A DNA stretch of 44,075 nucleotides from an uncultured Ignavibacteriaceae bacterium (lineage in GTDB: Bacteria; Bacteroidota; Ignavibacteria; UBA10030), in contig CAYIHQ010000002.1 of the NCBI GenBank assembly GCA_964362905.1, positions 1-44,075 on the forward strand, written 5' to 3'. The position numbers were made by a program, and so were the translations under genes. Position 1 is the stretch's first letter. Each line of letters opens with the position of its first letter. Shown here one piece after another: positions 1 through 24,666 of the stretch. The notes under the pieces were generated by a model that searched no databases, had not been told where the DNA came from, and worked only from the letters and a program-made list of their open reading frames with translations.

Positions 1-240
1 AAAGAACTACACTTTCACCCAAGTAGCTGTTATTACTACTGTTTTTACTAAAAATACTACTAAAATATCTAGAAATACCAGTTAAATAGCTAGAATCACT
101 AGTAAATCCACATTTTGTAGCTATTTTATAACTAATTATTACACCAAATGGTAGTAAAATTGCTATTACTACAAGTAAAAGGGAAAAAAGTATACGCAAA
201 AAGGTCCTTTTAGGCATATTTAACCTTTCTATTTCCCGAT

Positions 241-290
241 ATGAGACATTCAATACGATACATTCAATATGAGACATTCATTATGAGACA
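241..290. repeat. 14-bp tandem repeat (~3.5 copies, ATGAGACATTCAAT), junctions forming TCA-N3-TGA palindromes
   Basis: ATGAGACATTCAAT ACGATACATTCAAT ATGAGACATTCATT ATGAGACA read directly. Confidence 0.85.
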
Positions 291-323
291 GGCATAGACC
301 TTGCACTAGCAATAAGTATACCA
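290..323. promoter_or_regulatory. Convergent pair of sigma54 -24/-12-like motifs
   Basis: AGGCATAGACCTTGCA (+, 290-305) and TGGTATACTTATTGCT (-, 308-323) fit TGGCAC-N5-TTGC spacing. Confidence 0.55.
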
Positions 324-706
324 GCTCATAGTGAGGCATTCAAAATGATACTAGTATGGTTATTGCTATATGCAATACTAGTACTAGTTCTTAGAGTGTG
401 GCGGCAAACGAGCACGCCCTAGAAGGACTAGGTGCAAGATAAGGTCCAATTATTAGAATTCTCAAAATGATACTAAGATCAAGTGTTGCAAGAATTGGGC
501 TTGTATCACATTGAAGCACAATCCGGATTTATTCTCATTATGAAGCGTATAACTTATCTAATTCGTATATAAGTTTTACACAATATAACTATATGATCTT
601 ATTGAATAAATTGTAATACAGCTTATAATGTCTATAAGTTCTACAATTTCCAATATCGATACAACTTGTAACTATAAGAAATTACACAGTATTCTCATTG
701 TGATAC

Positions 707-722
707 TAGCACCTATATTGCA
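707..722 (+). promoter_or_regulatory. sigma54-like promoter for the first early operon
   Basis: TAGCACCTATATTGCA (AG instead of GG at -24), 50 bp upstream of the ATG at 772 with AAGGAG SD. Confidence 0.5.
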
Positions 723-771
723 ATTACAAGTAGTACAGCTAACAATTAAGTTAGCATAACAAGGAGTACGT

Positions 772-996
772 ATGATAGACAAAGTAATAGTATCAAAGGA
801 TAGGACACAAGCTATAATCTATTTCATCAACAAGTCATGCTTAACAGTATATCATGACAAAGGACTAGTACTAGATCTTGTAGCATGGTTTATGTTGCCC
901 GTGGGCAATACTAATCATGACATAACATGGGATGGACTACTAGCTTCTGACGAGAATACTGATATTAACATGCAATTAACTGGAAAGGTAGCCTAA
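772..996 (+). CDS. Hypothetical early protein, 74 aa
   Basis: ORF with AAGGAG SD. Confidence 0.75.
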   Translation: MIDKVIVSKDRTQAIIYFINKSCLTVYHDKGLVLDLVAWFMLPVGNTNHDITWDGLLASDENTDINMQLTGKVA

Positions 997-997
997 T

Positions 998-1126
998 ATG
1001 CTAAAACAATATAAACATGAATTACTAATGGCATTATTTTTAATTTCAGTAATACTTGCAGGTACTTATGTTATGTACCAAATTAATACAATTAACTATT
1101 ATGAGGTGATCTATGGACTTAAGTAA
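998..1126 (+). CDS. Small membrane protein, 42 aa (not in ORF track)
   Basis: MLKQYKHELLMALFLISVILAGTYVMYQINTINYYEVIYGLK; AAGG SD, one hydrophobic segment, fills the gap between two genes. Confidence 0.65.
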   Translation: MLKQYKHELLMALFLISVILAGTYVMYQINTINYYEVIYGLK

Positions 1127-1613
1127 TATTAAATACACTCCTATATTATTAGGCATTCAAAATGACCGAATCAATTGGGCTATACTAGTAAATGATCAGG
1201 AATTCAGTTATTTTCAAGGTCTAGGTTATCTTGCGGCTAAAGTCGATAAGAACGACTCTAGATCATTATGGAACGGCGTAGACCTAACTAAACTAACAAA
1301 GGAAGCCAAAATAAAAGCTTGTAGAGCAGTCTTGCCCTATAGTAAACGACTAACGGTAAATGACTTTGAATGGACTAATGTACTCTATGTTAAAAATCCT
1401 AAGATTGAAGACTTGCTAGATTGTCTCTTCTTAGATGCACAATCCCATGAATCTAGTTTTGAGTCGTGGTGCGACGAATTAGGCTATGACCAAGACTCAA
1501 TTAAAGCAAAAAAGACTTATGACCTTTGCATAGAAGGTTATTTCAAGCTCAAAAAAGCATTAGGCAAAGATTACGAAGCTATAAAACTACATATAGAATC
1601 TCTAAACGTATAA
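1113..1613 (+). CDS. Hypothetical phage protein, 166 aa
   Basis: GAGG SD; C-terminal motif LLDCLFLDA..SFESWCDELGYDQDSIKA resembles conserved phage hypothetical proteins. Confidence 0.8.
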   Translation: MDLSNIKYTPILLGIQNDRINWAILVNDQEFSYFQGLGYLAAKVDKNDSRSLWNGVDLTKLTKEAKIKACRAVLPYSKRLTVNDFEWTNVLYVKNPKIEDLLDCLFLDAQSHESSFESWCDELGYDQDSIKAKKTYDLCIEGYFKLKKALGKDYEAIKLHIESLNV

Positions 1614-1626
1614 CAAGAGGTGTAAA

Positions 1627-2295
1627 ATGAATATACTCACACAAAACAGTAAAATGAAGAAGTCTTCTAAAAATGGCATAGATGTCTACAACTTTGGCAT
1701 TCCAGCATTTCAGTCTAAAACTGGACTTAGGACTTGCCCTAATGCTGGTAGTTGCGCAAGCGGATGTTATGCTAAAAGTGGAACATATAATTTTAATAAT
1801 GTTATCAAAGCTTATGAAGACAGACTGCAATTGACTCAAGACAAAGACTTCATAGAGATCATGAGCGCAGAGATTAACCTTAAGTACTTGAAATCTAAGA
1901 CAAAAGGAAATAAATGTCTTATAAGAATTCACGACTCTGGCGACTTCTATAGCAAAGACTATGCTAGAGCATGGATAAGGATTATCGAAAATAATCCTAA
2001 TGTTGAATTTTATGCGTACACTAAAATGGTACAATTGTTTGAGGACTATATAGCAATATTGCCTAAAAACTTTAAGGTCATATATAGTTTTGGCGGCAAA
2101 CAAGACGCCCAGATCGACATTAATAAGCATTATCACTCCAAAGTATTCGATTCTGTGGAAGCATTACAAGCCCAAGGTTATACCGACGCCACAAACGACG
2201 ACCTTATTGCAGCTTTAGGAACTGACAAAAAGATAGGGCTTGTATATCACGGCATCAAAAAGTATGCCAATACTAATTGGAACAAAGTTGCTTAA
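1627..2295 (+). CDS. GP88 (gene product 88)-like protein with a radical-SAM-like Cys cluster
   Basis: TCPNAGSCASGCYA, RIHDSGDF, FYAYTK motifs; GAGG SD. Confidence 0.75.
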   Translation: MNILTQNSKMKKSSKNGIDVYNFGIPAFQSKTGLRTCPNAGSCASGCYAKSGTYNFNNVIKAYEDRLQLTQDKDFIEIMSAEINLKYLKSKTKGNKCLIRIHDSGDFYSKDYARAWIRIIENNPNVEFYAYTKMVQLFEDYIAILPKNFKVIYSFGGKQDAQIDINKHYHSKVFDSVEALQAQGYTDATNDDLIAALGTDKKIGLVYHGIKKYANTNWNKVA

Positions 2296-2305
2296 CAATA
2301 CATAT

Positions 2306-2343
2306 AGGCATGAGTATTGCAATATACTGCAATACTTGTGCTA
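2306..2343. promoter_or_regulatory. Inverted repeat made of two convergent sigma54-like motifs; may also act as a terminator hairpin
   Basis: AGGCATGAGTATTGCA (+) atatac TGCAATACTTGTGCTA (- strand TAGCACAAGTATTGCA). Confidence 0.5.
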
Positions 2344-2541
2344 TCTCTGTTTGATACATAATCCGGATCGTGCAGGTAGTTATGTATCACAACGATATGT
2401 ATAACTTGTAACAATTGTATATAAGTTTTTCATATACTTAAGTTACTAGTATTACTAGTTATTATTAAATATATCATTATGGTATACACAAGTTCTACAG
2501 TTTCCTATTATGAGACCGGAGTGTAATCACATAGTTACCTA

Positions 2542-2557
2542 TGGCACCATCTATGCA
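2542..2557 (+). promoter_or_regulatory. sigma54-like promoter for the second early operon
   Basis: TGGCACCATCTATGCA, upstream of AAGGAG SD and ATG 2595; IHF-like AATCACATAGTTA at 2525-2537. Confidence 0.55.
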
Positions 2558-2594
2558 TTAGTTATTAGTATCAACAACCAACAAGGAGCGTAAC

Positions 2595-2687
2595 ATGAAA
2601 ACAGTAACGGTAGACCAAGTGATAGTACTACTTCTGGGTACAACAGGTCTAATTTTCGTTCTATCTATTTTATGCAAGGTAGTGTAA
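2595..2687 (+). CDS. Small membrane peptide, 30 aa (not in ORF track)
   Basis: AAGGAG SD; MKTVTVDQVIVLLLGTTGLIFVLSILCKVV. Confidence 0.65.
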   Translation: MKTVTVDQVIVLLLGTTGLIFVLSILCKVV

Positions 2688-2688
2688 C

Positions 2689-2790
2689 ATGAAAAAACAA
2701 GTACTCATAATAAAAAGTAGTTACATAAATGATATACAGATAGCTAAACTAGAATTATTAGGTTATAAAGTAATAATAATTTTAAAATAA
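2689..2790 (+). CDS. Small protein, 33 aa (not in ORF track)
   Basis: AAGG SD; MKKQVLIIKSSYINDIQIAKLELLGYKVIIILK. Confidence 0.55.
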   Translation: MKKQVLIIKSSYINDIQIAKLELLGYKVIIILK

Positions 2791-2827
2791 ACCGTAGTAT
2801 TATACTACATAACAAAGGAGACAATAC

Positions 2828-3067
2828 ATGTTCCAATTTAAGAAAACAGACTTCGTGTCTACTAGAGTCAAGACTATCATCAATTCTCATGTTGAGAGTC
2901 GTGGCACCATATGGCTACTTAGTCTAGGTTATCAGGAATGCAATGACTATGCTGAATTGGTCCGTACCACAGTGAGTCAATGCAGTGGCTTTGAGCATAT
3001 CAGGTTCGAAACTGTAGCTCGATATATAAGAGCAACTAAGAATGCTCTTAGGAACTCGCAACTGTAG
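2828..3067 (+). CDS. Hypothetical protein, 79 aa
   Basis: AAGGAG SD; its 3' end is duplicated (see repeat at 3011). Confidence 0.75.
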   Translation: MFQFKKTDFVSTRVKTIINSHVESRGTIWLLSLGYQECNDYAELVRTTVSQCSGFEHIRFETVARYIRATKNALRNSQL

Positions 3068-3110
3068 CTCGATATATAAGGGCAACTAAGAATGCCCTCA
3101 GAAACCAGCA
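3011..3110 (+). repeat. Imperfect 50-bp tandem duplication
   Basis: 3011-3060 versus 3061-3110, both starting ACTGTAGCTCGATATATAAG. Confidence 0.95.
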
Positions 3111-3141
3111 ACCTGCCCAACCTAAGTAATATCAATATGAT

Positions 3142-3164
3142 ACTGGGGCCATATAGGCCCTAGT
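3142..3164. terminator. Stem-loop, possible terminator
   Basis: ACTGGGGCC-ATATA-GGCCCTAGT; weak U tract. Confidence 0.4.
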
Positions 3165-3206
3165 CTCTAAACAATACATAGTATTAATTATAACATAGGA
3201 GTACTT

Positions 3207-3404
3207 GTGCGAAAACCTAATTTTGAATTACAGAAAATTAAATTACAGCAGAAACAATTACAGCTGGCGCAGATATCTAAACAATTGGAATTATTGAATT
3301 CTCAAGTTAGGACAGTAACGGATAGATTAGAAGCTAAACAAGGAGAAGTTACTTTCATTGAAGATCTTCTGAATAGTGCAGTATCTCCTGCAGTATCAGA
3401 ATGA
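3207..3404 (+). CDS. Short coiled-coil protein, 65 aa
   Basis: AGGAG SD with GTG start; Gln/Leu heptads. Confidence 0.7.
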   Translation: MRKPNFELQKIKLQQKQLQLAQISKQLELLNSQVRTVTDRLEAKQGEVTFIEDLLNSAVSPAVSE

Positions 3405-3426
3405 TACAGTACTAATTCTGTACTGG

Positions 3427-3456
3427 CCCTTGTATTGCAATGATACAAGGGTTTTT
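3427..3456 (+). terminator. Intrinsic terminator
   Basis: CCCTTGTAT-N7-ATACAAGGG followed by TTTTT. Confidence 0.65.
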
Positions 3457-3488
3457 ATTGTTAATAGTTGTATTACTATATGTTTCTT

Positions 3489-3531
3489 TGGTATTAAAAT
3501 TGCATATATAATATTTGGCATTGAAATTGCA
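3489..3531 (+). promoter_or_regulatory. Two tandem sigma54-like motifs
   Basis: TGGTATTAAAATTGCA (3489-3504) and TGGCATTGAAATTGCA (3516-3531). Confidence 0.55.
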
Positions 3532-3800
3532 TGAAGGGGATACGGTGAAAGTGATCACCTCCCCTTATACCCCTCCAGAGGGATCTAGACCCGTTCTAAA
3601 ATTTAAAAAAAAATTAAAAACGACCATTAGCGATTATAAGCCCTTTAACGAGAGTTTGGCCTAGTTAACCCTTAGATAGCCACTTGTCTTAACAAACCCA
3701 GCCACGGCCCTGCTAGGGCCTTTAAAAGGGCATTGGCAGGTAATCTGTAAGGGCCCACCTCAGGCACAGATTAAACTCACTTATATTGAATCTAAAAATT

Positions 3801-4178
3801 TTAAAAAATTCTAAAATCAGTTACTAAAGGTTCACCATCAGTACCCCAACCACAGATAATACCTTCTCCAAGAAATCTAGGTCTTTTAAAAAAATCTTCG
3901 CTATAACCCATAGGATATACTTCAAATCCATTAACAATCTCAAATACTGATAAACCTTTTAGTTTAGGGTATGATTTATATGGGGGAGCCAAGGTTTTAT
4001 TACAAACAGATAAACCATCTTTAGGAGGAATACCATATCTAGAAAATTTAATAGATTCACCTATTCTATCCAATCTTTTATTATGTGTATTTAAGTAATT
4101 TTCCCAAAAGATATTTCCCGGTGATTTACCTCTTTTTTTGAGAATTTCTTGTCTTTCATAATCACTCAATATTTTCAT
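3801..4178 (-). CDS. Hypothetical protein, 125 aa
   Basis: Last gene of the leftward small-gene array. Confidence 0.65.
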   Translation of the reverse strand: MKILSDYERQEILKKRGKSPGNIFWENYLNTHNKRLDRIGESIKFSRYGIPPKDGLSVCNKTLAPPYKSYPKLKGLSVFEIVNGFEVYPMGYSEDFFKRPRFLGEGIICGWGTDGEPLVTDFRIF

Positions 4179-4180
4179 AC

Positions 4181-4390
4181 TTATAGTATCGCACTTCTAA
4201 AAAGGATCTTACCTATCTTACTATGGTAAATATCTGGATTTATTAGATATTTAACATCTTCTGTAGGATATCTTCTAATCATACCATTAGTAATAATACA
4301 AGGATAAGGCTTATCACATAATCTTATAGCAGGATGGAACATAACTATATTACCAGTTCTCACATCAATCTTTTTTATGAATTTGACCAT
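4181..4390 (-). CDS. Small protein with C-terminal KILFR tag
   Basis: Start codon embedded in the upstream gene's LYG codons with AAGG SD. Confidence 0.7.
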   Translation of the reverse strand: MVKFIKKIDVRTGNIVMFHPAIRLCDKPYPCIITNGMIRRYPTEDVKYLINPDIYHSKIGKILFRSAIL

Positions 4391-4655
4391 ATAACACCTT
4401 TAAAGTAGGATTATCGTATATATTGCCTATATATACTAAATAAGGTAATTTATCGAAAAACTGAGCACCATAGTTAATAAAAGTCAAATTTCCCCTTAAT
4501 GTTTCTAATATGTAAATACCTTTAGTAGAATTTACATAAGGTCCAGTGTAGTCACTAATAAGTACTATTCCTTGTTTATCATATATTTCAGCATTAGGAT
4601 CATTATACTTTGTTATGTGAATTATATCTCCTACTTTAAATCTTACATCTACCAT
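4365..4655 (-). CDS. Small SH3/KOW-like protein with KVLYG tag
   Basis: FKVGDIIHI N-terminus; IGNIYDNP (YopX-like C-terminal motif) precedes LKVLYG. Confidence 0.75.
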   Translation of the reverse strand: MVDVRFKVGDIIHITKYNDPNAEIYDKQGIVLISDYTGPYVNSTKGIYILETLRGNLTFINYGAQFFDKLPYLVYIGNIYDNPTLKVLYGQIHKKD

Positions 4656-4854
4656 ATAAAAGCTTTCCGTTCTTAATTAGCTTAAGATCTTTTTCCTTAA
4701 CCAATTCAACATCTTGGTCGTCTAGAAACTGTACCCAGTACAATTTTACTTCCTCTTGAAATATAACTGGAGGTATAAAAACCCGGCACGGTCTTTCTTT
4801 AAAGAGAAGTATTTCTTGCTGTAATTCATAACCGTTAACTATATATTTCTTCAT
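4636..4854 (-). CDS. Small SH3/Tudor-like protein with KLLYG tag
   Basis: YWVQFLD..VKEKDL beta-barrel pattern; GKLLYG C-terminus. Confidence 0.7.
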   Translation of the reverse strand: MKKYIVNGYELQQEILLFKERPCRVFIPPVIFQEEVKLYWVQFLDDQDVELVKEKDLKLIKNGKLLYGRCKI

Positions 4855-4934
4855 GATAATGCTTCTACTGTTCTTTTGTCTAATTTTGACTTATTTATTT
4901 TTATTAAAACTAAGTCTTTGATTTTTAATAGCAT
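4851..4934 (-). CDS. Possible 27-aa remnant of the tagged family (not in ORF track)
   Basis: MLLKIKDLVLIKINKSKLDKRTVEALS, ATGA overlap with the next gene; resembles the LIKI..KAVKLLY tails of other members. Confidence 0.35.
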   Translation of the reverse strand: MLLKIKDLVLIKINKSKLDKRTVEALS

Positions 4935-4987
4935 TATTAATTTTTAGCATAGTAACCCTAAAAATGCAAGCAATTTATTTTAGGCTT

Positions 4988-5014
4988 AATAAGTTGACTT
5001 AGTATATACATATA
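4988..5014 (+). promoter_or_regulatory. Repeated promoter or operator element, copy 1
   Basis: AATAAGTTGACTTAGTATATACATATA identical at 6677-6703; 21-bp core also at 7494-7514. Confidence 0.7.
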
Positions 5015-5053
5015 CACTTGTATGTATATATATTATAAAGTGCAATATAACAC

Positions 5054-5090
5054 AGAATTTAAGAGCTTCTTATAAAAGCTCTTAAATTCT
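5054..5090. repeat. Perfect 15-bp inverted repeat in the divergent intergenic region
   Basis: AGAATTTAAGAGCTT-N7-AAGCTCTTAAATTCT. Confidence 0.9.
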
Positions 5091-5221
5091 AAGTATAGTA
5101 TATATATATTATATACTATTCTTTATTGATTAGAATAAACTTCCTTAATCCCCTACCCCTTAATGGTTTCTTGTTGACTTGTTTGTTTAGTTGTGGTACA
5201 CCTATTGCATGGAGGTGCTCT

Positions 5222-5449
5222 TTGAATTTTGATAGTATTATATCTGACGAAATAGATAATCAGTTATTAGGAGATCCTTGGTTAAAAAAGTCGCCGTACA
5301 AAAATCAAGCTACAGGAGAGATTAAATATATGGACACCTATGACTTGTATCTAGTAGCTAAAAGTCTTTATTTCGCAAATATTGGTAAATTATGGCAATC
5401 TATTCCAGATTCGTTACCTTTAAGGTTGTTATATGGCCCGAAAGATTAG
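5222..5449 (+). CDS. Small protein with RLLYG tag (probable TTG start at 5222 rather than 5126)
   Basis: GGAGG SD at 5211 followed by an in-frame TTG. Confidence 0.65.
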   Translation: MNFDSIISDEIDNQLLGDPWLKKSPYKNQATGEIKYMDTYDLYLVAKSLYFANIGKLWQSIPDSLPLRLLYGPKD

Positions 5450-5705
5450 TAAATATTATGTTGGTATGCTACTTAGGCATAAAAAACATGGTTTCACTGT
5501 TAAACTTTTAGACAAGCATCGTACTACAAACTGGGTATTCGAAGTAGTTGCAGGAGAACTCCAGGAAAAGCTTAGGCCAGGTTTTGTTTTTGATGAATAT
5601 CTAATCACATATCGTGTGTATAGCTATGCTACTATTCGTAATAGTTTTGAACCTTTAACTGATAGTACTGTAGGAAGGCTGTTATATGGCACCCAAAAGT
5701 TCTAA
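5433..5705 (+). CDS. Small SH3-like protein with RLLYG tag
   Basis: YYVGMLLRHKKHG N-terminus; start embedded in upstream LYG. Confidence 0.75.
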   Translation: MARKISKYYVGMLLRHKKHGFTVKLLDKHRTTNWVFEVVAGELQEKLRPGFVFDEYLITYRVYSYATIRNSFEPLTDSTVGRLLYGTQKF

Positions 5706-5988
5706 ACTACCGTATAGAGTAGGGGATAGAGTTCGCCACAAACATGGAGCAGAATATGAGATTATGATCATTTCTGATCTTTTTTATTCAAACGGTTGTT
5801 ATAAACTTAGAAATTTAACTAATGGTTGTTTGGATAATTCGTGTTGGGTTATGAGTGGTGTGCTTAATAGAGACTATGAACCTTGCAGTCCTGCCATTAA
5901 GATGTTGTTCGGTCGAGGTAGCGCAGCTACAAGCCCTCCTTCAGCGAATGGACCAGTGGTAATTCGGGGAGGTCTCGATGGCGATTGA
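5686..5988 (+). CDS. Small SH3-like protein with KMLFG tag and low-complexity tail
   Basis: YRVGDRVRHKHG N-terminus. Confidence 0.75.
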   Translation: MAPKSSKLPYRVGDRVRHKHGAEYEIMIISDLFYSNGCYKLRNLTNGCLDNSCWVMSGVLNRDYEPCSPAIKMLFGRGSAATSPPSANGPVVIRGGLDGD

Positions 5989-6196
5989 CTATCAGGTGGG
6001 AGATGTTATTAAACCAAAAAATCAATACTTCATGTATTTGAATCCCTGCCTAGTTTTAGATATTACGGAAAAAGGAGTTGTTTGCATAATAGTAGGACAA
6101 CCAGTAAGCACAAAGTTTGAAATACCGAATTCACAAATGCACCTTATGACTAAAGATGATACAGGAACTGTTCTATATGGCAATAAAGAGAAATAG
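5978..6196 (+). CDS. Small SH3/KOW-like protein with TVLYG tag
   Basis: GGAGG SD; YQVGDVIKPK. Confidence 0.75.
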   Translation: MAIDYQVGDVIKPKNQYFMYLNPCLVLDITEKGVVCIIVGQPVSTKFEIPNSQMHLMTKDDTGTVLYGNKEK

Positions 6197-6401
6197 CATA
6201 GTAAGACGTATAAGCACCAGTGAAGTATTTGAAGTTGTTGATATAGTTGGGAAATTACTACTGTGTGATCCTATTAATCTACCTTCTTTAAAAGGACTTA
6301 AAGTTCCTTTAACAGAAGATGAAATAGAGGTTATTATGGACGAAGATACTGATGTATTTAATTTATTATTTAGGAGTGACACTGATGGTGAAGGGTCTTG
6401 A
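6177..6401 (+). CDS. Small SH3-like protein with NLLFR tag (start revised from 6156)
   Basis: ATG embedded in upstream LYG codons with AGGA SD; MAIKRNSIVRR. Confidence 0.7.
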   Translation: MAIKRNSIVRRISTSEVFEVVDIVGKLLLCDPINLPSLKGLKVPLTEDEIEVIMDEDTDVFNLLFRSDTDGEGS

Positions 6402-6447
6402 TGTTCCAGAAAGTAAAGTTACAAAGTTATTATATGGACAAAGCTAA
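6385..6447 (+). CDS. 20-aa micro-ORF consisting essentially of the tag (not in ORF track)
   Basis: AGGAG SD at 6372; MVKGLDVPESKVTKLLYGQS; its LYG codons contain the next start at 6434. Confidence 0.6.
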   Translation: MVKGLDVPESKVTKLLYGQS

Positions 6448-6691
6448 TAAATTCCTAAAAGGTGATTATGTACTGGTAGAAGTAGGATCTCCTCTAATAG
6501 AGGTTGATATATGGGTAGGTTATATAGCTCATGTGGGCAAAACCTGTTATGCCATTGAAAATTTAAGTATTGGGGCTAATTTTGTAACTAAGTTACCGTT
6601 TTTATTTGATAATATGCTAATAAAAATAGAGCCTTCTAACCTAAAAAACACAATAAAAGCAGTTAAATTGCTGTACAATAAGTTGACTTAG
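6434..6691 (+). CDS. Small SH3/KOW-like protein with KLLYN tag (start revised from 6398)
   Basis: FLKGDYVLVE; IKAVKLLYN. Confidence 0.7.
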   Translation: MDKANKFLKGDYVLVEVGSPLIEVDIWVGYIAHVGKTCYAIENLSIGANFVTKLPFLFDNMLIKIEPSNLKNTIKAVKLLYNKLT

Positions 6692-6703
6692 TATATACAT
6701 ATA
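6677..6703 (+). promoter_or_regulatory. Repeated promoter or operator element, copy 2
   Basis: Identical 27 bp to 4988-5014; TTGACT -35-like hexamer, overlaps the upstream stop codon. Confidence 0.7.
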
Positions 6704-6756
6704 TATTATATATAGCTATCCTGCAACCTATTTCACCAGGACAATAGATACTTTAT

Positions 6757-6990
6757 ATGAAAATACGCTTTATAGAATATCACAACGACATCTATGTAGT
6801 CATAGGGATTACTTATGATTCTAGACATAACTATCCTGAGTGCTTTGTAGCGACTCCTCTTAAAGACTTGAACCCGTCAATCTTTAGATCTATTTTGCAA
6901 TTATATACTTTAAATATCCCATTTGTTGATGCTAAAGAGATAACTGACAAAAACAGACTTATATCATTGATGGTGTTATATGGTAGGTAG
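6757..6990 (+). CDS. Small protein with MVLYG tag
   Basis: ORF; tag contains the next ATG at 6980. Confidence 0.7.
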   Translation: MKIRFIEYHNDIYVVIGITYDSRHNYPECFVATPLKDLNPSIFRSILQLYTLNIPFVDAKEITDKNRLISLMVLYGR

Positions 6991-7222
6991 CAACTTTAGT
7001 CCAGGCGATTATGTTAAGTACAGAAATGCTATTTATATAGTGAAAACAATTATTTATATGAATCCAAATGTACTAAATGATCCATTTGTGTGTGGTTTAG
7101 TTTCTGTAGGAAACTCTAATAATCATGAACAACTATTAGTTAGAGAAGGTTTGCTGATTAAAGTAAACCCTCCAATTAATGAGAAGGCTACAAAGGCCGT
7201 AAAGGTACTATATGATAATTAA
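6980..7222 (+). CDS. Small SH3/KOW-like protein with KVLYD tag
   Basis: FSPGDYVKYRNA; TKAVKVLYD. Confidence 0.75.
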   Translation: MVGSNFSPGDYVKYRNAIYIVKTIIYMNPNVLNDPFVCGLVSVGNSNNHEQLLVREGLLIKVNPPINEKATKAVKVLYDN

Positions 7223-7502
7223 GGTCGGGGATTACTTAATAACTAAGGAAAATCAATTATTTAGGATAATCGATGTGCATACAGATAGTAAATGTACATA
7301 CTATGACATAAAAAGTATGCAGGCAGAAGAAGTTGCAAGTAGTAGCTACGAATGGGGTCAAGATTCTGTCTGGTTAAGTCGGAAAATGCCAAAAACCATC
7401 AGATCAGTACCGAGAAATGTGCTAAAACACATGGGTAAAGTAATCCCAGAAGAGAAAATTACAAGAAGTGTAAAGATTTTATATGGTAAAACATTGACTT
7501 AG
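7212..7502 (+). CDS. Small SH3/KOW-like protein with KILYG tag
   Basis: IKVGDYLITK; RSVKILYG. Confidence 0.75.
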   Translation: MIIKVGDYLITKENQLFRIIDVHTDSKCTYYDIKSMQAEEVASSSYEWGQDSVWLSRKMPKTIRSVPRNVLKHMGKVIPEEKITRSVKILYGKTLT

Positions 7503-7514
7503 TATATACATATA
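7494..7514 (+). promoter_or_regulatory. Repeated promoter or operator element, copy 3
   Basis: TTGACTTAGTATATACATATA. Confidence 0.7.
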
Positions 7515-7524
7515 ATATATTAAT

Positions 7525-7848
7525 GTGAGGAACCTGATGTCTAAACTTAAAAATAAGAAGAAACCAGACAAACTCACAGACGAGCACAGTTCTAAGTTAT
7601 TGGAAGACTTAGATAATTTTGATAACGGATTCTTTTCAGCTTTAGCTGAAACCAGTAAATATGAAATTATATCGACAACAATGGATGATGGCGAAGTACT
7701 TACCAAAGAACAGTACGCATTGGTTAAGACCGAATGCTCACGTTTAGGATTGAAAGTACTTTATCAAATTCATTTTAAAAACGGTAACTCCATATTTATG
7801 AATCCAGAGAATTTAAAGACAGGATATATTCACGAAGGAATGCACTAA
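7525..7848 (+). CDS. Hypothetical protein (likely start at ATG 7537)
   Basis: GAGGA SD before MSKLKN. Confidence 0.7.
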   Translation: MRNLMSKLKNKKKPDKLTDEHSSKLLEDLDNFDNGFFSALAETSKYEIISTTMDDGEVLTKEQYALVKTECSRLGLKVLYQIHFKNGNSIFMNPENLKTGYIHEGMH

Positions 7849-7962
7849 GTAAGTCAAATGTTTCATTCAACCTTATTAATTGTTTTATTTAACAAAAAAG
7901 GAAACTAGGAACTTTTACTATAACATTCCATGATATATCCTATCTTATTTTGAGGAGAAAAT

Positions 7963-8202
7963 ATGGTAGGAAAAATTAAGTATACTTGCAAAAATTGTGG
8001 GTGGACTACATCTATTAGAGAAGAGTGGGCCGACTTGAGGCCAAAACGTTGTATGAATAAAAAATGTAATACTAGCTTTCATCGCTCCCCAGATTCACTA
8101 ATAGTAGAGTTACCACAAAAAATTGAGAATGTTGTTCAAAAACAACCTCTCAAAAAAGTTAAGAAACAAGATGAAATAGAATCTGATAATAAAGAGAGTT
8201 AA
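7963..8202 (+). CDS. Small zinc-ribbon protein
   Basis: CKNC...CMNKKC; GAGGAG SD. Confidence 0.75.
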   Translation: MVGKIKYTCKNCGWTTSIREEWADLRPKRCMNKKCNTSFHRSPDSLIVELPQKIENVVQKQPLKKVKKQDEIESDNKES

Positions 8203-8204
8203 AT

Positions 8205-8798
8205 ATGGGCGATAAAGAAGATAAAAATTCTCCAGATAAAAGGCTTAATGCCTCTGCAGAGCATCTAAGAGCTTATAAAGAAGAAGCCGGGCTTAAATCT
8301 ACTGCTCAGTTAGAAGCGTATAGAGCTATCAAGAAATTATCTCCAGAAGGTTCCATGTGGACCTTAACTCAACAATTATTACAAGAAGTCATGGCAGGAC
8401 ATACAGTTATTAATCCTGAGAGTTTGCCGCCATTAACGCAAATGGTAGAAGAACTCAAAAACGAGATTGAGAAGAGATATGCGGACGAGCTAGAACTCAA
8501 AAAACTACTTTTAGATAGCATCCCTACAATGAGATCTGTAAGAGAGTGGGTTAAGAAAGAGGGATGGGATGAAGCTATTTGGGGATATGTTAGAGCTGAA
8601 GGACTTTTTACTGCATCTAAAAGAGCACAAATGATTGAGTCTCTACGAACTCGTGGATTAGATAGATCAGATGTTGCAGCAAAAATATGGCTCACCCTTT
8701 CTGGAGATTATTCAGAAAAGATGGAAGTTGATAATAAATCTGTAGATATGTACCGAGAGATTAATAATATTTTGCACGGCAAGAAAAAGCAAGAATAG
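8205..8798 (+). CDS. Putative terminase small subunit
   Basis: Helical 197-aa protein directly upstream of TerL; assignment mainly positional. Confidence 0.5.
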   Translation: MGDKEDKNSPDKRLNASAEHLRAYKEEAGLKSTAQLEAYRAIKKLSPEGSMWTLTQQLLQEVMAGHTVINPESLPPLTQMVEELKNEIEKRYADELELKKLLLDSIPTMRSVREWVKKEGWDEAIWGYVRAEGLFTASKRAQMIESLRTRGLDRSDVAAKIWLTLSGDYSEKMEVDNKSVDMYREINNILHGKKKQE

Positions 8799-8821
8799 GT
8801 ACTCTGAGAAGAGCGATAAGT

Positions 8822-10435
8822 ATGCCAGAGATTCAATATAATACAGAAGGTAAACCTCTTAGAATTCATGAACTGGATATAGAAGGATTAGCTGAATATT
8901 TATATAAAAATAAAATTAGAACTACTCAGGGTAAACTAATTCAACCTTTACATTCAGGACATTTGAGCGTAGTTTCCGATCCAGCTAGATTTAAAGTCTT
9001 AGCTTGCGGAAGACGCTGGGGTAAAACTTTGCTGACCTCACTTACAGCCCTCGCTGTATTAATGCAGATGAATCGTAGAGTATGGATTGTAGCCCCTGAT
9101 TACAGTTTATGTGAAAAAGTATTTAGAGAACTTTATCATATTCTTGTTGTTCAATTAAAGATTATTCGTCCTGGTAAACCTGGAGGCGGAAGAGCTAGAA
9201 ATCAAAAAGGAGACTATTATTTAGAAACTCCTTGGGGTTCTGTTCTTGAAGCCAAATCTATGGAAAATCCAGATTCGTTAGCTGGAGAAGCTAATGACCT
9301 AGTTATTATTGATGAGGCCGCACTAAACCAATCCTTAGAGGATATTTGGATGCAGATGTTGCAACCGACTCTTATGGATAAATCTGGCAGTGCTATTTTT
9401 ATTAGCACTCCTCGTGGTAAGAACGGTTTTTACAAATTATTCCTATATGGTCAAACTGGTAGAAAACAAAGAGAAGGTAAAATAGCTATTAGTTTTGATG
9501 AAGAAGCTGGCGTATCTAATGATATGCAAGATTGGAGTTCTTTTCAAAAAAGTAGTTATGATAATCCTTTATTAGCATCCAATGCTCAAACTTCTAAAGA
9601 AGAGATCGACTCTGCTTATCGACGTGCGGCGCTATCTGGTAAACTTCTTAAATTCAAACAAGAATATCTTGCAGATTTTGAAGCTGTTTCTGATAGTTGT
9701 TTTCCTGGTTTTTTGGTAGACCCAACCGATAACAGCCCATTTCCACATGTAATAGATTATATTTGGCATCCTGATGAAGGGCCAGTATACGCTGCTTGCG
9801 ATCATAACTTTGCAAAGCCCGCAAGTACTATTTTTGCTCAAGTAAATAAATATGGTGATGTAGTTATATTCGATGAGAAATTTACTCCGCATACAACAAG
9901 TTACATGCAGGGACAACAAATTCTAGACAAGCAAAAAGAGCTAACAACTCAAGCAATCAGGATTTGGAAGAATGAAGTAGCTGAACTAGGAGTTAAGCGT
10001 CATATAAAATTTGAAGCTATCGTAGCTGATATATCGGGAGACCAAGTTCAACTTAACGGTAGAACTTGTTGGGACGATTTGGAATCTATATTAGGTAGAC
10101 GACCTACAGGGCTTAAACAAGATAGAGAAACAGGAGCCAATATGATTAGACTGTGGATGAATTTTCCACAATTCGATCATAAAGGAAGTCCTTTATTTGA
10201 TGAAAATAAACAGCAAGTAAAGAGACCTAAACTATTTATTACTAGAAATTGCGTAAATACTATTTATGCTATAAGTACAGCAGTATTCAAAAAAGGTAAA
10301 AATGGAGTTCTTAAAGAGGATTATGATGAGTCACCAGAAGGTTATGAAGGTCTTATAGATGCTTTACGATATCTCATGGTTCATTTATTCCACGATAAAG
10401 GAAATCATTTCACAGTTGTTAAGGGAGTTAACTAA
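8822..10435 (+). CDS. terL: Terminase large subunit
   Basis: Walker A CGRRWGKT, Walker B LVIIDEAA, motif III ISTPRG, FKQEYLADF, RNase H-like nuclease with C-terminal DALRY. Confidence 0.96.
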   Translation: MPEIQYNTEGKPLRIHELDIEGLAEYLYKNKIRTTQGKLIQPLHSGHLSVVSDPARFKVLACGRRWGKTLLTSLTALAVLMQMNRRVWIVAPDYSLCEKVFRELYHILVVQLKIIRPGKPGGGRARNQKGDYYLETPWGSVLEAKSMENPDSLAGEANDLVIIDEAALNQSLEDIWMQMLQPTLMDKSGSAIFISTPRGKNGFYKLFLYGQTGRKQREGKIAISFDEEAGVSNDMQDWSSFQKSSYDNPLLASNAQTSKEEIDSAYRRAALSGKLLKFKQEYLADFEAVSDSCFPGFLVDPTDNSPFPHVIDYIWHPDEGPVYAACDHNFAKPASTIFAQVNKYGDVVIFDEKFTPHTTSYMQGQQILDKQKELTTQAIRIWKNEVAELGVKRHIKFEAIVADISGDQVQLNGRTCWDDLESILGRRPTGLKQDRETGANMIRLWMNFPQFDHKGSPLFDENKQQVKRPKLFITRNCVNTIYAISTAVFKKGKNGVLKEDYDESPEGYEGLIDALRYLMVHLFHDKGNHFTVVKGVN

Positions 10436-10746
10436 TGGCAGTAACAAAAATTCAAGCTAGAAGAGTCAGGCAACCCGTACTAAATGGAGATCTGGCAATT
10501 TCTGAAGCTTTAGATGCAACTACTACTGTTGATATCGTTACATTAAGCTCAGTGGCCGAAAAAGTCACTATTCAGTCAGATGGGACCTTAGCTGGTACGG
10601 TTGAATTTTCTATAAATGGTATAACTTTTTATGGATCAACTGCTTTTACTGCAGGCGTCCCACTTACTTATAGTACTCATTTAGCTAGGGTAATTAAAGT
10701 TACTCGTACTGGCGGTGCCGGAAGAGCACACATGGTAGCACGATAA
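10435..10746 (+). CDS. Small beta-sandwich virion-type protein
   Basis: VEFSINGITF...VIKVTRT pattern; TAATG coupling to TerL. Confidence 0.6.
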   Translation: MAVTKIQARRVRQPVLNGDLAISEALDATTTVDIVTLSSVAEKVTIQSDGTLAGTVEFSINGITFYGSTAFTAGVPLTYSTHLARVIKVTRTGGAGRAHMVAR

Positions 10747-10973
10747 TGGAGACTATTATCTGTAGAAAAAATAAATTATTCTGTATAGATAAAGCAAAAC
10801 TCAGCCAAAAAGCTCGCAAAGACGAAATTATTAACGCTTTGTATGCAGCTATTTATATAGAATTTTCTGGGGCTAATTACAATGATGATTATAAGAACTT
10901 AAATTCTTTAGAACGACTCGTTAAAATTAATGAGTACGCTAATAGATGGCTAAGTGAAAGAGGATTAGTATAA
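10746..10973 (+). CDS. Hypothetical protein, 75 aa
   Basis: Coupled ORF (TAATG overlaps at both ends). Confidence 0.7.
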   Translation: METIICRKNKLFCIDKAKLSQKARKDEIINALYAAIYIEFSGANYNDDYKNLNSLERLVKINEYANRWLSERGLV

Positions 10974-11245
10974 TGAAGAAACAGAATCAGAAAAATATTG
11001 GAACTTCGATGTTCGGAGATATGGTTCAGAATCACAAGATGAAAGAAGTCGGTCCTCCAGAAGGAGCTAATAGGAATTTATTGGACGGAAAAAAACCAAT
11101 GAATATTAAAGAGGCTACTGTTAACTGGTTTAAAGCGGCCAAGGAACAAAATCCAAGTTCGGGATTTTTGGAAGTACCTTCCGAAGGATTAAAACCAACT
11201 GCAGCATTCGATAGAGAAATGTTACACAAAGGTAAAAAGAAATAA
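10973..11245 (+). CDS. Basic, probably disordered protein, 90 aa
   Basis: Lys-rich, coupled ORF. Confidence 0.7.
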   Translation: MKKQNQKNIGTSMFGDMVQNHKMKEVGPPEGANRNLLDGKKPMNIKEATVNWFKAAKEQNPSSGFLEVPSEGLKPTAAFDREMLHKGKKK

Positions 11246-11254
11246 GGAGAAAGA

Positions 11255-11530
11255 ATGAAAGCTTATAAACATAAAGGTATGAAAGCTCCTCGTCCGGGAT
11301 CTTATAGTATGGATGAAAGTAAAATTGTAAAAGAAGCGCCAAAAACAAAGCCTTCTATGAAACACGCTGAGCCTTCTTTCCCTAAAGAAGAAGGTATGCA
11401 GTCAATGGCACCTTCACACAAAAAGAAAGCACTTCCTACTAAGGATGCTCCAGAAGGAGTAAAAGGTGTTAATGAAGGTTCTAAACATGAACTACCAAAA
11501 GGTGGTTGTATTGGGGAATCTGAGGTTTAG
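11255..11530 (+). CDS. Lys/Pro/Glu-rich disordered protein, 91 aa
   Basis: AAGGAG SD; low-complexity composition. Confidence 0.7.
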   Translation: MKAYKHKGMKAPRPGSYSMDESKIVKEAPKTKPSMKHAEPSFPKEEGMQSMAPSHKKKALPTKDAPEGVKGVNEGSKHELPKGGCIGESEV

Positions 11531-11549
11531 AATTTTATAAATTTTTAAT

Positions 11550-11568
11550 TGACTAGAAGAGCTAGTCA
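11550..11568 (+). promoter_or_regulatory. Hairpin with G-AAGAG-C loop upstream of portal
   Basis: TGACTAG-AAGAG-CTAGTCA. Confidence 0.55.
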
Positions 11569-11598
11569 CCTATTATCTAGAGGATAAAGGAGGTAGTT

Positions 11599-13482
11599 AT
11601 TTCTTTTAATCTAGGCATCGCCAATCATCCTATTAGTCGATTAGGTGGATTAAGTTCTGTTGGCGTGTATCTTTACGAAGATATTTATTATCGACAATGG
11701 ATAACAGAAATTGCACTAGCTTTTTATGAAGGTCGTCAAGACGAATTTGTGTGGCTTGATTTAGTTAGACAATTTCGTAATCCAGAAAAACAGCAGATCC
11801 TTCCTATGAATCTTACAAAAGAAATCATAGATGAAGTTTCTATTTTATATCAAGAAGCACCAATTTATCAAGTAGTTGATGAATCAGGTAAACTTCTTAA
11901 AAATGATCAAGAACTTTGGAAACAAATTCAAAACGACTCTCGTTATCTTATGATAATGGATAAACTAGACAGATGGACTAGATTACTAGGAACTGTATTA
12001 GTTAAAGTGAGTTTTGTAGATCCTGAAAGTGGACAATTAGTAAAAGAAAATGCAGGCGGTAAAGTACAGCTAGATGTCATGCATGGTGGTGTTTATGATA
12101 TACGTCATGGTGCTTCACCTTATTACATTACAGAACTTTTAATTGGTTTTGGTACAAAATTTGGTGGATGGCAACATGAGAGTGGTATGATGGCTGGTGG
12201 TGGCGTAGCAGCCACAATTCCTAGTCCTTCTAGCTATGGAGTTGCTGATGCCAGAGCAAAAGCTGGATTCCATTACAATGAAGTAGGAAGTATTAACGAC
12301 ATTGGTAAGGTCAACAGAATTTACTGGAGCCCGAATACTCATGTTATAACTGACGATAAAAATAATGGTTATAAAGTAGATAATCCTTACGGAATTATAC
12401 CTGCAGTGCCATTTTTCAATAGCGATCCTGCCCATTACTATTTTCTGCCCATAAACGAACCTCTTATTTATGCTAATCATGCATTAAATATGAGAATTAC
12501 AGATCTAAATCATATTGCTAAATTCCAATCTTTTGGAGTTCCTGTTGTTAAGGGAGTTGAACGACCGACTTCAATACGACAAGGAAGACCAGTTGATGAT
12601 TATAATCAACTTAAGGGTGGAGCAGCTCAATCACGATTTGGAGGATTGGGTGGAGTAAGCGGTATAGGGGCTTCAGGTCAGTATAGAACATTTGATTCAG
12701 GATTTGGCATTTTCAAAGATGGGAATGCTGATGCTAATATGTTAGGTATGAGTCTAGGACCTGATACAGCAGTTGCTGTAGGTGAAAAAGGAGATTTTAA
12801 ATTTGCACACCCATCAGCAGACATTACTGGTTTAGTCAGAACAATTCACTCCATTACAGATATGGTAAGAATTACTCACGGACTAAGAGCTAAGTATGAA
12901 CAGCAATTACCAAGTTCTGGTTTTGCTACAATGATGGAAAAGATGGGCGTTATTGAAGATAATGTTCGCCGATCAAGAATTTTCAAAGAGAGAGAACAAC
13001 AACTTTTTGGTATAATCAAAAAGCTTTGGAATACTCACCACAATAAAGGTGGCGATAAAAAGTTCTCAGAAGATGCACGATTAGAAATAACATACAAAAC
13101 TCCAGATTTTTCAGTAGATCCAAAAACGAAAAAAGAAGATCTTTTAATGGAATCAAAACTTTTGGACACAGAAGATTCTCATATTATCGGGAAACTTTAT
13201 CCACATATGAGTGAGATTGAAATTAAAAATCTAATTAAAAAACGTAGGAAGGATAGACAAGAAAAGGCAGAATTTGATACTGAATTGCAAGTGCAGACTG
13301 GCTTAACCATGCAGGAAAATGGACTTGGACCTGAAGGCGTACCGCCAGAACAAGATGGACTAGATGATGTTCCAGCACCTAAAATTGATAATAGGGCTAA
13401 ACATTCTGAAGAAAGTTCTAAGCAACCAGGAAAAAATTCTGATCCTAGGAAGAAGAAAAAGCCTTCAACTGAGGAGAAGTAA
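11599..13482 (+). CDS. Portal protein (probable ATT start at 11599; ORF track starts at GTG 11665)
   Basis: Position after TerL; FYEGRQ, NLTKEIID, NPYGIIPAVPF motifs of SPP1 gp6-like portals; acidic C-terminal tail; AAGGAGGT SD before in-frame ATT. Confidence 0.88.
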   Translation: MSFNLGIANHPISRLGGLSSVGVYLYEDIYYRQWITEIALAFYEGRQDEFVWLDLVRQFRNPEKQQILPMNLTKEIIDEVSILYQEAPIYQVVDESGKLLKNDQELWKQIQNDSRYLMIMDKLDRWTRLLGTVLVKVSFVDPESGQLVKENAGGKVQLDVMHGGVYDIRHGASPYYITELLIGFGTKFGGWQHESGMMAGGGVAATIPSPSSYGVADARAKAGFHYNEVGSINDIGKVNRIYWSPNTHVITDDKNNGYKVDNPYGIIPAVPFFNSDPAHYYFLPINEPLIYANHALNMRITDLNHIAKFQSFGVPVVKGVERPTSIRQGRPVDDYNQLKGGAAQSRFGGLGGVSGIGASGQYRTFDSGFGIFKDGNADANMLGMSLGPDTAVAVGEKGDFKFAHPSADITGLVRTIHSITDMVRITHGLRAKYEQQLPSSGFATMMEKMGVIEDNVRRSRIFKEREQQLFGIIKKLWNTHHNKGGDKKFSEDARLEITYKTPDFSVDPKTKKEDLLMESKLLDTEDSHIIGKLYPHMSEIEIKNLIKKRRKDRQEKAEFDTELQVQTGLTMQENGLGPEGVPPEQDGLDDVPAPKIDNRAKHSEESSKQPGKNSDPRKKKKPSTEEK

Positions 13483-24665: not shown

Positions 24666-24666
24666 G

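Follow-up and report, generated by a model that had tools for sequence, protein, structure and literature searches.

A question raised by the early region of an uncultivated, myovirus-like phage is why so many of its small genes begin inside the last codons of the gene before them. The window, i.e. the whole stretch of DNA analysed here, comprises bases 1–44,075 of the 113,147-base contig CAYIHQ010000002.1 (hereafter contig C2; 34% G+C, from a mixed bin of 721 contigs), which carries this phage of ~113 kb. Between positions 4181 and 7502, short open reading frames (ORFs) on both strands end in a peptide tag of the type Leu-Tyr-Gly, and the codons of this tag often contain, in the +1 phase, the ATG of the next gene. 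A sequence-only reading of the window had suggested that this arrangement might be a plug-in junction, at which cassettes could be inserted, deleted or shuffled in an integron-like manner. Our data show that the embedded-start junction is a selected dual-coding overlap. As to how it came about, we consider it probable that the overlap is real and selected, that it arose since a conserved peptide happens to contain a start codon, and that no dedicated cassette system is involved.

All eight junctions that had been described exist on the strands given for them. Within the xTA-TAT-Gxx codons (TATATG) of an upstream ORF, embedded ATGs are found at 5433, 5686, 6177, 6434, 6980 and 7212 on the plus strand and at 4655 and 4390 on the minus strand; with the upstream ORFs stopping at 5449, 5705, 6196, 6447, 6990 and 7222 (plus) and at 4636 and 4365 (minus), the overlaps amount to 17, 20, 20, 14, 11 and 11 nucleotides (nt) and to 20 and 26 nt, respectively, i.e. 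the range of 11–26 nt stands as proposed. The four AAGG strings that had been quoted are present as well, so that four of the eight window junctions have a purine-rich Shine–Dalgarno (SD) sequence 5–10 nt before the start; at the other window junctions the SD sequence is weak or absent, with weaker purine runs at three of them and none at 6434. What had to be redrawn is the cast of genes and the reach of the tag. The ORF upstream of 6434 is a mini-ORF of 20 codons (6385–6447) and not a full gene like the others. The ORF at 998–1126, which had been set apart as an unrelated membrane peptide, does end in ...VIYG with an embedded ATG but fits the hydrophobic-Tyr-Gly pattern and represents a ninth junction. 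The tag itself, assigned to 4365–7222, is present there but is far more widespread, with 25 strict cases (ORFs of at least 55 codons) on the 113-kb contig, most of them at 93–112 kb on the minus strand, and about 45 proteins if looser variants with Ser, Leu, Ala, Glu or Lys after Tyr are included. The genes concerned in the window are the following (f numbers denote families, L numbers loci of relatives; lengths in amino acids, aa).

998–1126, plus strand: ORF of 42 aa with the tail ...VIYG plus two residues; the Tyr-Gly codons contain the ATG of the next gene (1113)
4181–4390, minus strand: small gene of 69 aa with the variant tail ...ILFRSAIL; its start lies within the preceding tag
4365–4655, minus strand: tagged small gene of 96 aa, ...KVLYG plus six residues; the tag contains the next ATG (4390), with AAGGTG upstream
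4636–4854, minus strand: first gene of the leftward early operon, 72 aa, ...KLLYG plus four residues; the tag contains the next ATG (4655); an ortholog is present in L001
5126–5449, plus strand: first gene of the rightward operon, ...RLLYG plus three residues; the tag contains the ATG at 5433
5433–5705, plus strand: tagged gene of 90 aa, ...RLLYG plus four residues; the tag contains the ATG at 5686
5686–5988, plus strand: f47, 100 aa, with an internal tag ...KMLFG (TTG TTC GGT) followed by a long tail; no embedded ATG
5978–6196, plus strand: f48, 72 aa, ...TVLYG plus four residues; the tag contains the ATG at 6177; same junction in L001 and L025
6177–6401, plus strand: f49, 74 aa, with the variant tail ...NLLFRSD...
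6385–6447, plus strand: mini-ORF of 20 codons, MVKGLDVPESKVTKLLYGQS; the tag contains the ATG at 6434; start position as for f21 in L001, tail f21-like
6434–6691, plus strand: f50, 85 aa, with the tail ...KLLYNKLT coded CTG TAC AAT, hence no ATG; its last codons contain the −35 hexamer of a promoter-like repeat
6757–6990, plus strand: f15, 77 aa, ...MVLYG plus one residue; the tag ends the C-terminal helix (65–75) and contains the ATG at 6980
6980–7222, plus strand: f38, 80 aa, ...KVLYD plus one residue; the tag contains the ATG at 7212; f22 is missing after f38
7212–7502, plus strand: f17, 96 aa, ...KILYG plus four residues; its embedded ATG, with an ORF of 4 codons, is unused; the −35 hexamer of the next promoter lies in the tail

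The real start of the first rightward ORF (5126–5449) is probably a TTG near 5222, which follows GGAGGTG. The gene at 5978 has a GGAGG of its own, so f47 keeps the motif without an embedded ATG.

For a wider view of the tag, relatives of the phage were gathered from IMG/VR (18 loci; a second IMG/VR scan with alignment yielded 22 loci and few new contigs) and from metagenomes (8 loci, none of them simultaneously close and long). A mechanical scan for the tag, which accepted only Gly, Asp, Asn or Gln after the aromatic residue, gave 112 tagged ORFs before filtering. Five duplicate loci (L016, L012, L015, L009 and L010) were removed, as were ten rows judged spurious by position or strand (C2 71300 and 73684; L001 5823; L003 13497 and 17201; L011 20049 and 1109; L013 11631; L008 7194; L014 6597), and the final set consists of 86 tags from ten genomes, i.e. 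the window's phage and nine relatives. The tags conform to the consensus [K/R/E]-[V/L/I]-L-[Y/F]-G, with 0–10 residues after it: two positions before Leu there is Lys in 35, Arg in 13 and Glu in 13 tags, the residue directly before Leu is Val, Leu or Ile in 78 of the 86, the aromatic position is occupied by Tyr (74) or Phe (12), Gly comes next in 69, and no more than four residues follow the motif in 65.

This tag is a protein-level motif and not merely a nucleotide string, because it is kept with other codons (CTG-TAC, TTG-TTC(-GGT), CTT-TAT-CAA), is kept also at operon ends where no downstream gene follows, and ends a helix in structural models. In both AlphaFold models obtained the tag closes a helix that ends at its Tyr. 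The f15 model (mean predicted local distance difference test score, pLDDT, 85.9) has a C-terminal helix at 65–75 that stops at the Tyr of the tag; the f17 model (pLDDT 75.2) has its helix at 80–91, and its four post-tag residues (<50) are modelled as disordered. f17 is the only modelled protein with a four-residue tail, and it is in such tails that the N-terminal codons of the next gene fall. Sequence and structure comparisons assigned the tagged proteins to no family and detected no kinship among their bodies: with tails trimmed, no pair among 13 tagged families exceeded 39% probability in hhalign, Pfam and PHROGs returned nothing above cut-off for 16 early proteins, no match of f17 in a protein atlas reached 0.9, and Foldseek against the PDB found none at E ≤ 0.001 for the f15 model, with weak SH3-like rows only. 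A literature search on small and early phage proteins found no published description of the motif or of the embedded-start arrangement.

A degenerate DNA pattern for the tag, the count of which was taken as its abundance in the records of relatives, has 15 matches on contig C2 (control 0) and 6, 4, 6, 3 and 1 matches in the records of five relatives. None of three phage proteases or peptidases tracks this abundance across the five records. Of these candidate readers of the tag, the subtilase is lacking in one tag-bearing record that is 91% complete and occurs in a complete record with few tags, the von Willebrand factor A (vWA)-metallopeptidase is present even in the record with a single pattern match, and the gene for the ClpP-like protein is present in both near-complete records. 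The protein in the scaffold position of this phage (13875–14813) lacks the motif at its end.

That the junction string exceeds chance is evident from the coding strand of 5126–7502, where TATATG[GA] occurs 11 times; 2000 first-order Markov simulations gave 1.1 on average and never more than 7. In the 86 tags, the next gene starts on the tag's ATG in roughly half of all cases: a +1 ORF of 60 or more codons begins at the embedded ATG in 49, i.e. in 49 of the 61 tags with TAT-G, and the count rises to 52 when TTG in Phe variants is included. By comparison, in-frame TAT-G pairs elsewhere in the same 86 genes, which serve as a control, open such an ORF in just 3 of 79 cases. Contig C2 contributes 13 used ATGs in 25 tags, and the shares in five further loci are 4/5, 7/10, 5/10, 5/6 and 2/2 (spurious rows excluded and TTG in Phe variants set aside). 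The N-termini of orthologs agree with the embedded starts, and the same junction is retained at orthologous positions in relatives.

Codon choice in the tags points to selection on this second message. The sequence-only reading had suggested comparing synonymous codons in tags with and without a downstream overlap, and this comparison shows that synonymous sites are selected for the embedded ATG and for an SD sequence derived from AAG. Relative to codon counts expected from each genome's long ORFs, TAT is in excess in the Tyr tags (64 of 74, 52.8 expected, p=0.0017); the excess resides in tags that have a downstream gene close by (56 of 63, 44.5 expected, p=0.0005) and is lacking in those without one (8 of 11, 8.2 expected). 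Similarly, where Lys stands two codons before Leu it is coded AAG, which yields an AAGG(T) SD string, in 19 of 35 cases (9.6 expected, p=0.0007), with 12 of 19 in tags with a used ATG (5.3 expected, p=0.001) and 7 of 16 in the other tags (not significant). Overlaps of at least 8 nt follow 13 of 22 tagged as against 40 of 142 untagged genes on contig C2, the commonest overlaps of untagged pairs being 4 nt (15 pairs) and 1 nt (9 pairs); with 11–26 nt in the window and up to 35 nt in relatives, the junctions fall outside the 4- and 1-nt overlaps of termination–reinitiation pairs.

Several points weigh against our preferred account. A cruder measure of the SD sequence, AGG in the two preceding codons, does not significantly separate used from unused tags (20 of 49 and 9 of 37, p=0.17). 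Downstream starts are here putative assignments from ORFs and orthologs, and in one pair of paralogs N-terminal conservation sets in 12 nt past the embedded ATG, so that some of the 'used' ATGs may be in-frame codons upstream of the true start. Orthologous junctions were counted once per genome, and the 86 tags are therefore not independent events. Of the 81 tags with a downstream ORF, 69 have the downstream gene in the +1 phase, an excess above simple opportunism that could reflect descent by duplication or tag-to-tag recombination. Finally, reporter work cited in a review (PMC12548453) has coupling fall steeply as overlaps grow from 4 to 25 nt, and termination–reinitiation coupling may therefore be weak at 11–35 nt.

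Whether genes have moved as cassettes can be judged from the relatives, where gene order turned out to be fixed, as the shuffling idea would not have it, but gene content varies by whole genes and includes one precise tag-to-tag loss. In 14 loci the shared families are collinear (f47, f48, f49, f21, f50, f15, f38, f22, f17, three conserved genes and the terminase gene), differing by whole genes that are present or absent; the exceptions are one family on the opposite strand in L007, one that is reversed in L008 and, at varying sites, one gene without a known family. The latter encodes 150–190 aa, occurs at L001 3977–4471, L027 668, L011 11602 and L004 4212, either 5' of the early array or just after the terminase gene, and is the only clearly mobile gene in these loci. 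All seven of the shared early genes group L001 with L025 and leave the window's phage outside, and the large terminase subunit (TerL) gives the same relationship; the array has therefore been inherited as a block, and the junction arrangement was passed on vertically with it. At the nucleotide level, comparison of the early region with five relatives aligned only short patches, so that breakpoints are not mappable to the base; closer f15 homologs (53–80% identity) were found on contigs of up to 69 kb. Contigs of four public runs compared with positions 1–12000 showed no joints, insertions or deletions in 3800–8800, where it has to be considered that contigs drop rare variants and that some runs possibly represent the source sample.

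Four putative deletions emerge from these comparisons, of which one is exactly tag-to-tag, one is ambiguous and two have their ends elsewhere. The precise one is in the window: f22, which five relatives have in the interval from f38 to f17, is lost here with its borders exactly in the f38 tag and the f22 tag; the f38–f17 junction of the window matches the left half of one L001 junction and the right half of the other, and these two L001 junctions share 12 of 14 bases. The ambiguous one is in L006, which also lacks f22 and in which the peptide of the f38 tag has decayed, with the likely f17 start still in a Tyr-Glu codon pair. Also in the window, f21 is cut down to the 20-codon ORF, whose start is positioned in the f49 tail as in L001 and whose tail contains the f50 start. 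To judge from its sequence, this loss would be an internal in-frame deletion, not a tag-to-tag event, and the mini-ORF is probably its remnant with both junctions kept. That it retains start, tag and next junction suggests that an unbroken chain of translated ORFs matters. As a class, short tagged ORFs provided only this one convincing case. In L025, f21 and f50 are both missing; the f49 tail is intact and followed directly by the promoter, so that the deletion extends from after the f49 stop to the promoter and ends outside of the tags.

Integrons carry arrays of small gene cassettes in one reading direction, with variable content, an integrase (IntI) and attC sites. The early array resembles them in being composed of small genes of variable content that point in one direction; it differs in having no integrase on the contig, no structured attC-like site and a fixed gene order. 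The sequence-only reading had seen no recombinase in the window. Six matches to the tyrosine recombinase family PF00589 occur in the 721-contig bin, none of them on contig C2, and there is no integrase among the 64 proteins scanned against Pfam. The 60-nt windows at the 49 used junctions fold no better than shuffled sequences (mean z −0.28; −0.08 for the 37 unused tags). With collinear order in the 14 loci, a single consistent tree, one of four deletions running tag to tag and no integrase, integron-like cassette shuffling thus lacks support. Nor do the tag nucleotides speak for it, as they are hardly more similar than the shared peptide alone would make them: with the peptide held constant and codons drawn anew according to the usage of the genome, 4.0 ± 2.7 tag pairs matching over at least 12 nt are expected, and 8 are found on contig C2 (p=0.125), where exact matches between tag regions are typically 5–8 nt long and their mean length is slightly raised (6.84, expected 6.26 ± 0.23). 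There is no evidence here for a dedicated cassette-exchange system; repeats of 7–15 nt can act as ordinary deletion endpoints, and a passive role of this kind is possible, because content varies by whole genes and one loss is precisely tag-to-tag.

A milder version of the plug-in idea would dispense with an integrase and let a shared string of ~14 nt serve general recombination genes as a joint, whole genes being lost, gained or swapped tag-to-tag with frames, tags and starts kept. The exact absence of f22 between two strings that are 12/14 identical in L001 would fit, as would two neighbouring junctions in L025 that share all of 15 nt, with 13 of 15 shared by a third, the start of f17 in the tag of four different upstream genes across genomes, the f15 tag hosting the starts of at least three different downstream genes, and a stretch of 16 identical nt in two tails that flank a subtilase-containing block. 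Candidate genes for such recombination are present on the contig (ERF-family annealing protein, PD-(D/E)XK nuclease, RecA-like protein, resolvases), and Red/Erf-type recombinases have been linked to phage mosaicism (PMC2327257). Collinearity and the lack of gene-to-gene incongruence speak against it, however, as do the short typical matches and the two of four deletions that end inside f21 (window) or between the f49 stop and the promoter (L025); moreover, selection alone would retain only deletions that spare both neighbours, and a precise product is therefore no evidence of mechanism. We regard this version as unlikely. The reverse possibility, that a module of SD sequence, A/U spacer, ATG and G was selected as a ribosome-binding site and that the 'tag' is just what the upstream frame spells across it, could draw on TATATGG also starting untagged late genes (29397, 31278, 32205 and 40157), on the preference for T at −1 and A at −2 in the general start context of the phage (91 long genes) and on L006, where the f38 tag peptide has decayed and the f17 start is still in place. 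Yet 37 of the 86 tags keep the peptide without a used ATG (10 of these with TAC and 12 with Phe codons), Gly follows Tyr or Phe in 24 of these 37, the motif reaches ~8 residues further upstream as an amphipathic pattern that is modelled as a helix, and in the two other frames the module would spell other peptides, none of which is seen. This possibility is thus largely refuted, and we give it hardly any credence.

Descent offers another account, in which one ancestral small gene overlapped its neighbour at the tag and tandem duplication copied tag and junction together, the bodies then diverging past recognition. Contig C2 does contain paralog groups (four copies at 110035–111042, three at 95655–98384 and one pair), some 9–11 of its 25 tagged proteins share an N-terminal x-G-D-x strand motif when read by eye, both structural models show small β-rich bodies followed by a helix, with weak SH3-like fold matches for f15, and the prevalence of the +1 phase would follow naturally. 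But with tails trimmed no pair of the 13 families reaches 40% hhalign probability, several tagged proteins are different in being mostly helical by eye, 156–199 aa long or endowed with an Ala-rich linker, and the junction type is not faithfully copied in tandem paralogs: the four copies all keep the tag, with an overlap in some and a 50-nt spacer in one. It is doubtful that duplication was the main route. More speculative is a phase-preserving accordion, in which exchange from tag to tag, be it inside one genome or among relatives infecting the same cell, would remove, duplicate or replace whole genes with frames, tail and signals intact, the tag being read by probably a host factor, such that the array would be a fast-turnover library of tagged host-takeover proteins; there is only a slight chance that this is so.

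The dual-coding overlap without a cassette system remains the account that we prefer. In this case, Tyr-Gly coded as TAT-GGN would have offered, by containing an ATG in the +1 phase, a free start a few codons before the stop, and downstream genes may have extended or anchored their 5' ends on this nearest free ATG. Codon choice would then have been tuned, with TAT for the start and AAG for the SD sequence, and peptide selection would afterwards have frozen the downstream start in place. The outcome would be tightly packed operons, each start being located in A/U-rich RNA without structure, shortly before the stop of the preceding gene, with translation being either coupled or simply led by the SD sequence; either may apply. 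Helix-tag repeats present in dozens of copies and in one orientation could then be an occasional deletion endpoint, and the phage is well placed for such occasional repeat deletions because it encodes an Erf-type annealing protein.

How does this arrangement compare with known systems? Huber et al. reportedly described co-directional overlapping genes with translational coupling, and the start codon of a downstream gene is said to move upstream as one published route by which overlaps originate. The early genes may have taken a similar route in that a downstream gene would adopt an in-frame start inside its neighbour; the difference is that this adopted start is held by selection on the neighbour's conserved peptide, many times over. 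According to the review on overlaps, common co-directional overlaps measure 4 nt and 1 nt (PMC12548453). With coupled pairs of that kind the junctions share the position of same-strand operon neighbours, a downstream start and SD sequence inside the upstream coding sequence, compaction and possible coupling, whereas they differ in their 11–35 nt, always in the other phase, and in having the start at a fixed place in a peptide motif of dozens of otherwise unrelated genes.

Among published systems, the promoter-early stem-loop (PeSL) cassettes of T4-type phages come nearest to the cassette idea; the authors of the report on them (PMC2839356) showed recombination between the repeats. As described there, PeSLs are likewise short repeats and flank small, dispensable early genes where the genome of a large lytic phage is variable; a PeSL, however, is a non-coding promoter plus terminator, whereas the junction codes on both sides, is shorter and has neither promoter nor hairpin. 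In a PeSL-type comparison of breakpoints, one of the four deletions was tag-to-tag and one ambiguous, with no relatives close enough for nucleotide-level mapping. By the same description, closer to PeSLs than the tag junction are three exact promoter-like repeats in the window, one of them with a stem-loop:

4994–5014, plus strand: promoter-like repeat, copy 1, exact 21 nt, TTGACT..., with an 18-pair stem-loop downstream
6683–6703, plus strand: promoter-like repeat, copy 2, overlapping the end of f50
7494–7514, plus strand: promoter-like repeat, copy 3, overlapping the end of f17

These are the only three exact copies on the 113-kb contig, and the repeat is conserved in L001, L003 and L011. 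The −35 hexamers of copies 2 and 3 are coded in the last codons of f50 (...K-L-T-stop) and f17 (...T-L-T-stop). The 18-pair stem-loop (5053–5091) is located in the divergent intergenic region, ~40 nt after the first repeat, and the pair resembles a promoter-plus-stem-loop cassette. Directly before the first repeat, at 4964–5002, there is a 12-codon ORF, MQANLFRLNKLT, which resembles the remnant of a gene's tail that came along with the promoter. A consensus promoter scan gave 19 sites, with 26.2 in shuffled sequences, and is uninformative in such AT-rich DNA.

The early genes of this phage are thus a clear example from nature of a neighbour's start codon being held in place by selection on a peptide motif, and of synonymous sites tuned for a second message. 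In practical terms, gene callers that penalize long overlaps will misplace the starts of these small genes, and with the embedded-start rule the starts of about half of the early genes in this phage clade can be set right. If tag-to-tag recombination were true, the junction would parallel, within coding sequence, the PeSL cassettes of T4-type phages. A larger question concerns the role that a helix ending in ...L-Y-G plays on so many unrelated early proteins.

With respect to the phage as a whole, the window continues from the large terminase gene (8822–10435) into portal, capsid, sheath, tube and baseplate genes; a Pfam scan of contig C2 beyond the window identified genes for a family A DNA polymerase, a helicase and a ligase, and ClpP-like, subtilase and trypsin-like proteases are encoded along with a MoxR/vWA-metallopeptidase pair. 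TerL has 28% identity to its top match among cultured phages. A relative with direct terminal repeats comprises 114,940 bases, and contig C2 is therefore probably near-complete.

Some tagged genes outside of the window have features of their own. The three dispersed paralogs at 95655–98384 of contig C2 (156–180 aa) are conserved in their N-terminal part, which is followed by an Ala-rich low-complexity middle and a tail in ...ILY or ...MLY; they are interleaved with a lytic transglycosylase gene and other genes. At 102256–104138 (loci L021/L022), two unrelated tagged genes with 16 identical tail bases, both encoding ...TKATK..., flank the subtilase block, the subtilase gene of which is absent from the 91%-complete relative and present in another. 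Elsewhere in the window, a GP88-family protein is encoded at 1627–2295 (Pfam E=3e-42) and kept 5' of the early array in several relatives, and a 249-aa ORF among the tail genes (24640–25389) has a weak HNH endonuclease match just under the Pfam cut-off. The portal gene, uninterrupted in the window (11665–13482), is split by a LAGLIDADG homing-endonuclease ORF (Pfam E=7e-31), probably an intron, in four relatives, i.e. L001 (12933–15695), L017, L014 and L008. In L017 the ORF for the large terminase subunit (3062–5875) extends to 937 aa, compared with ~537 aa elsewhere, which suggests that an element has been inserted, for instance an intein or a fused endonuclease.

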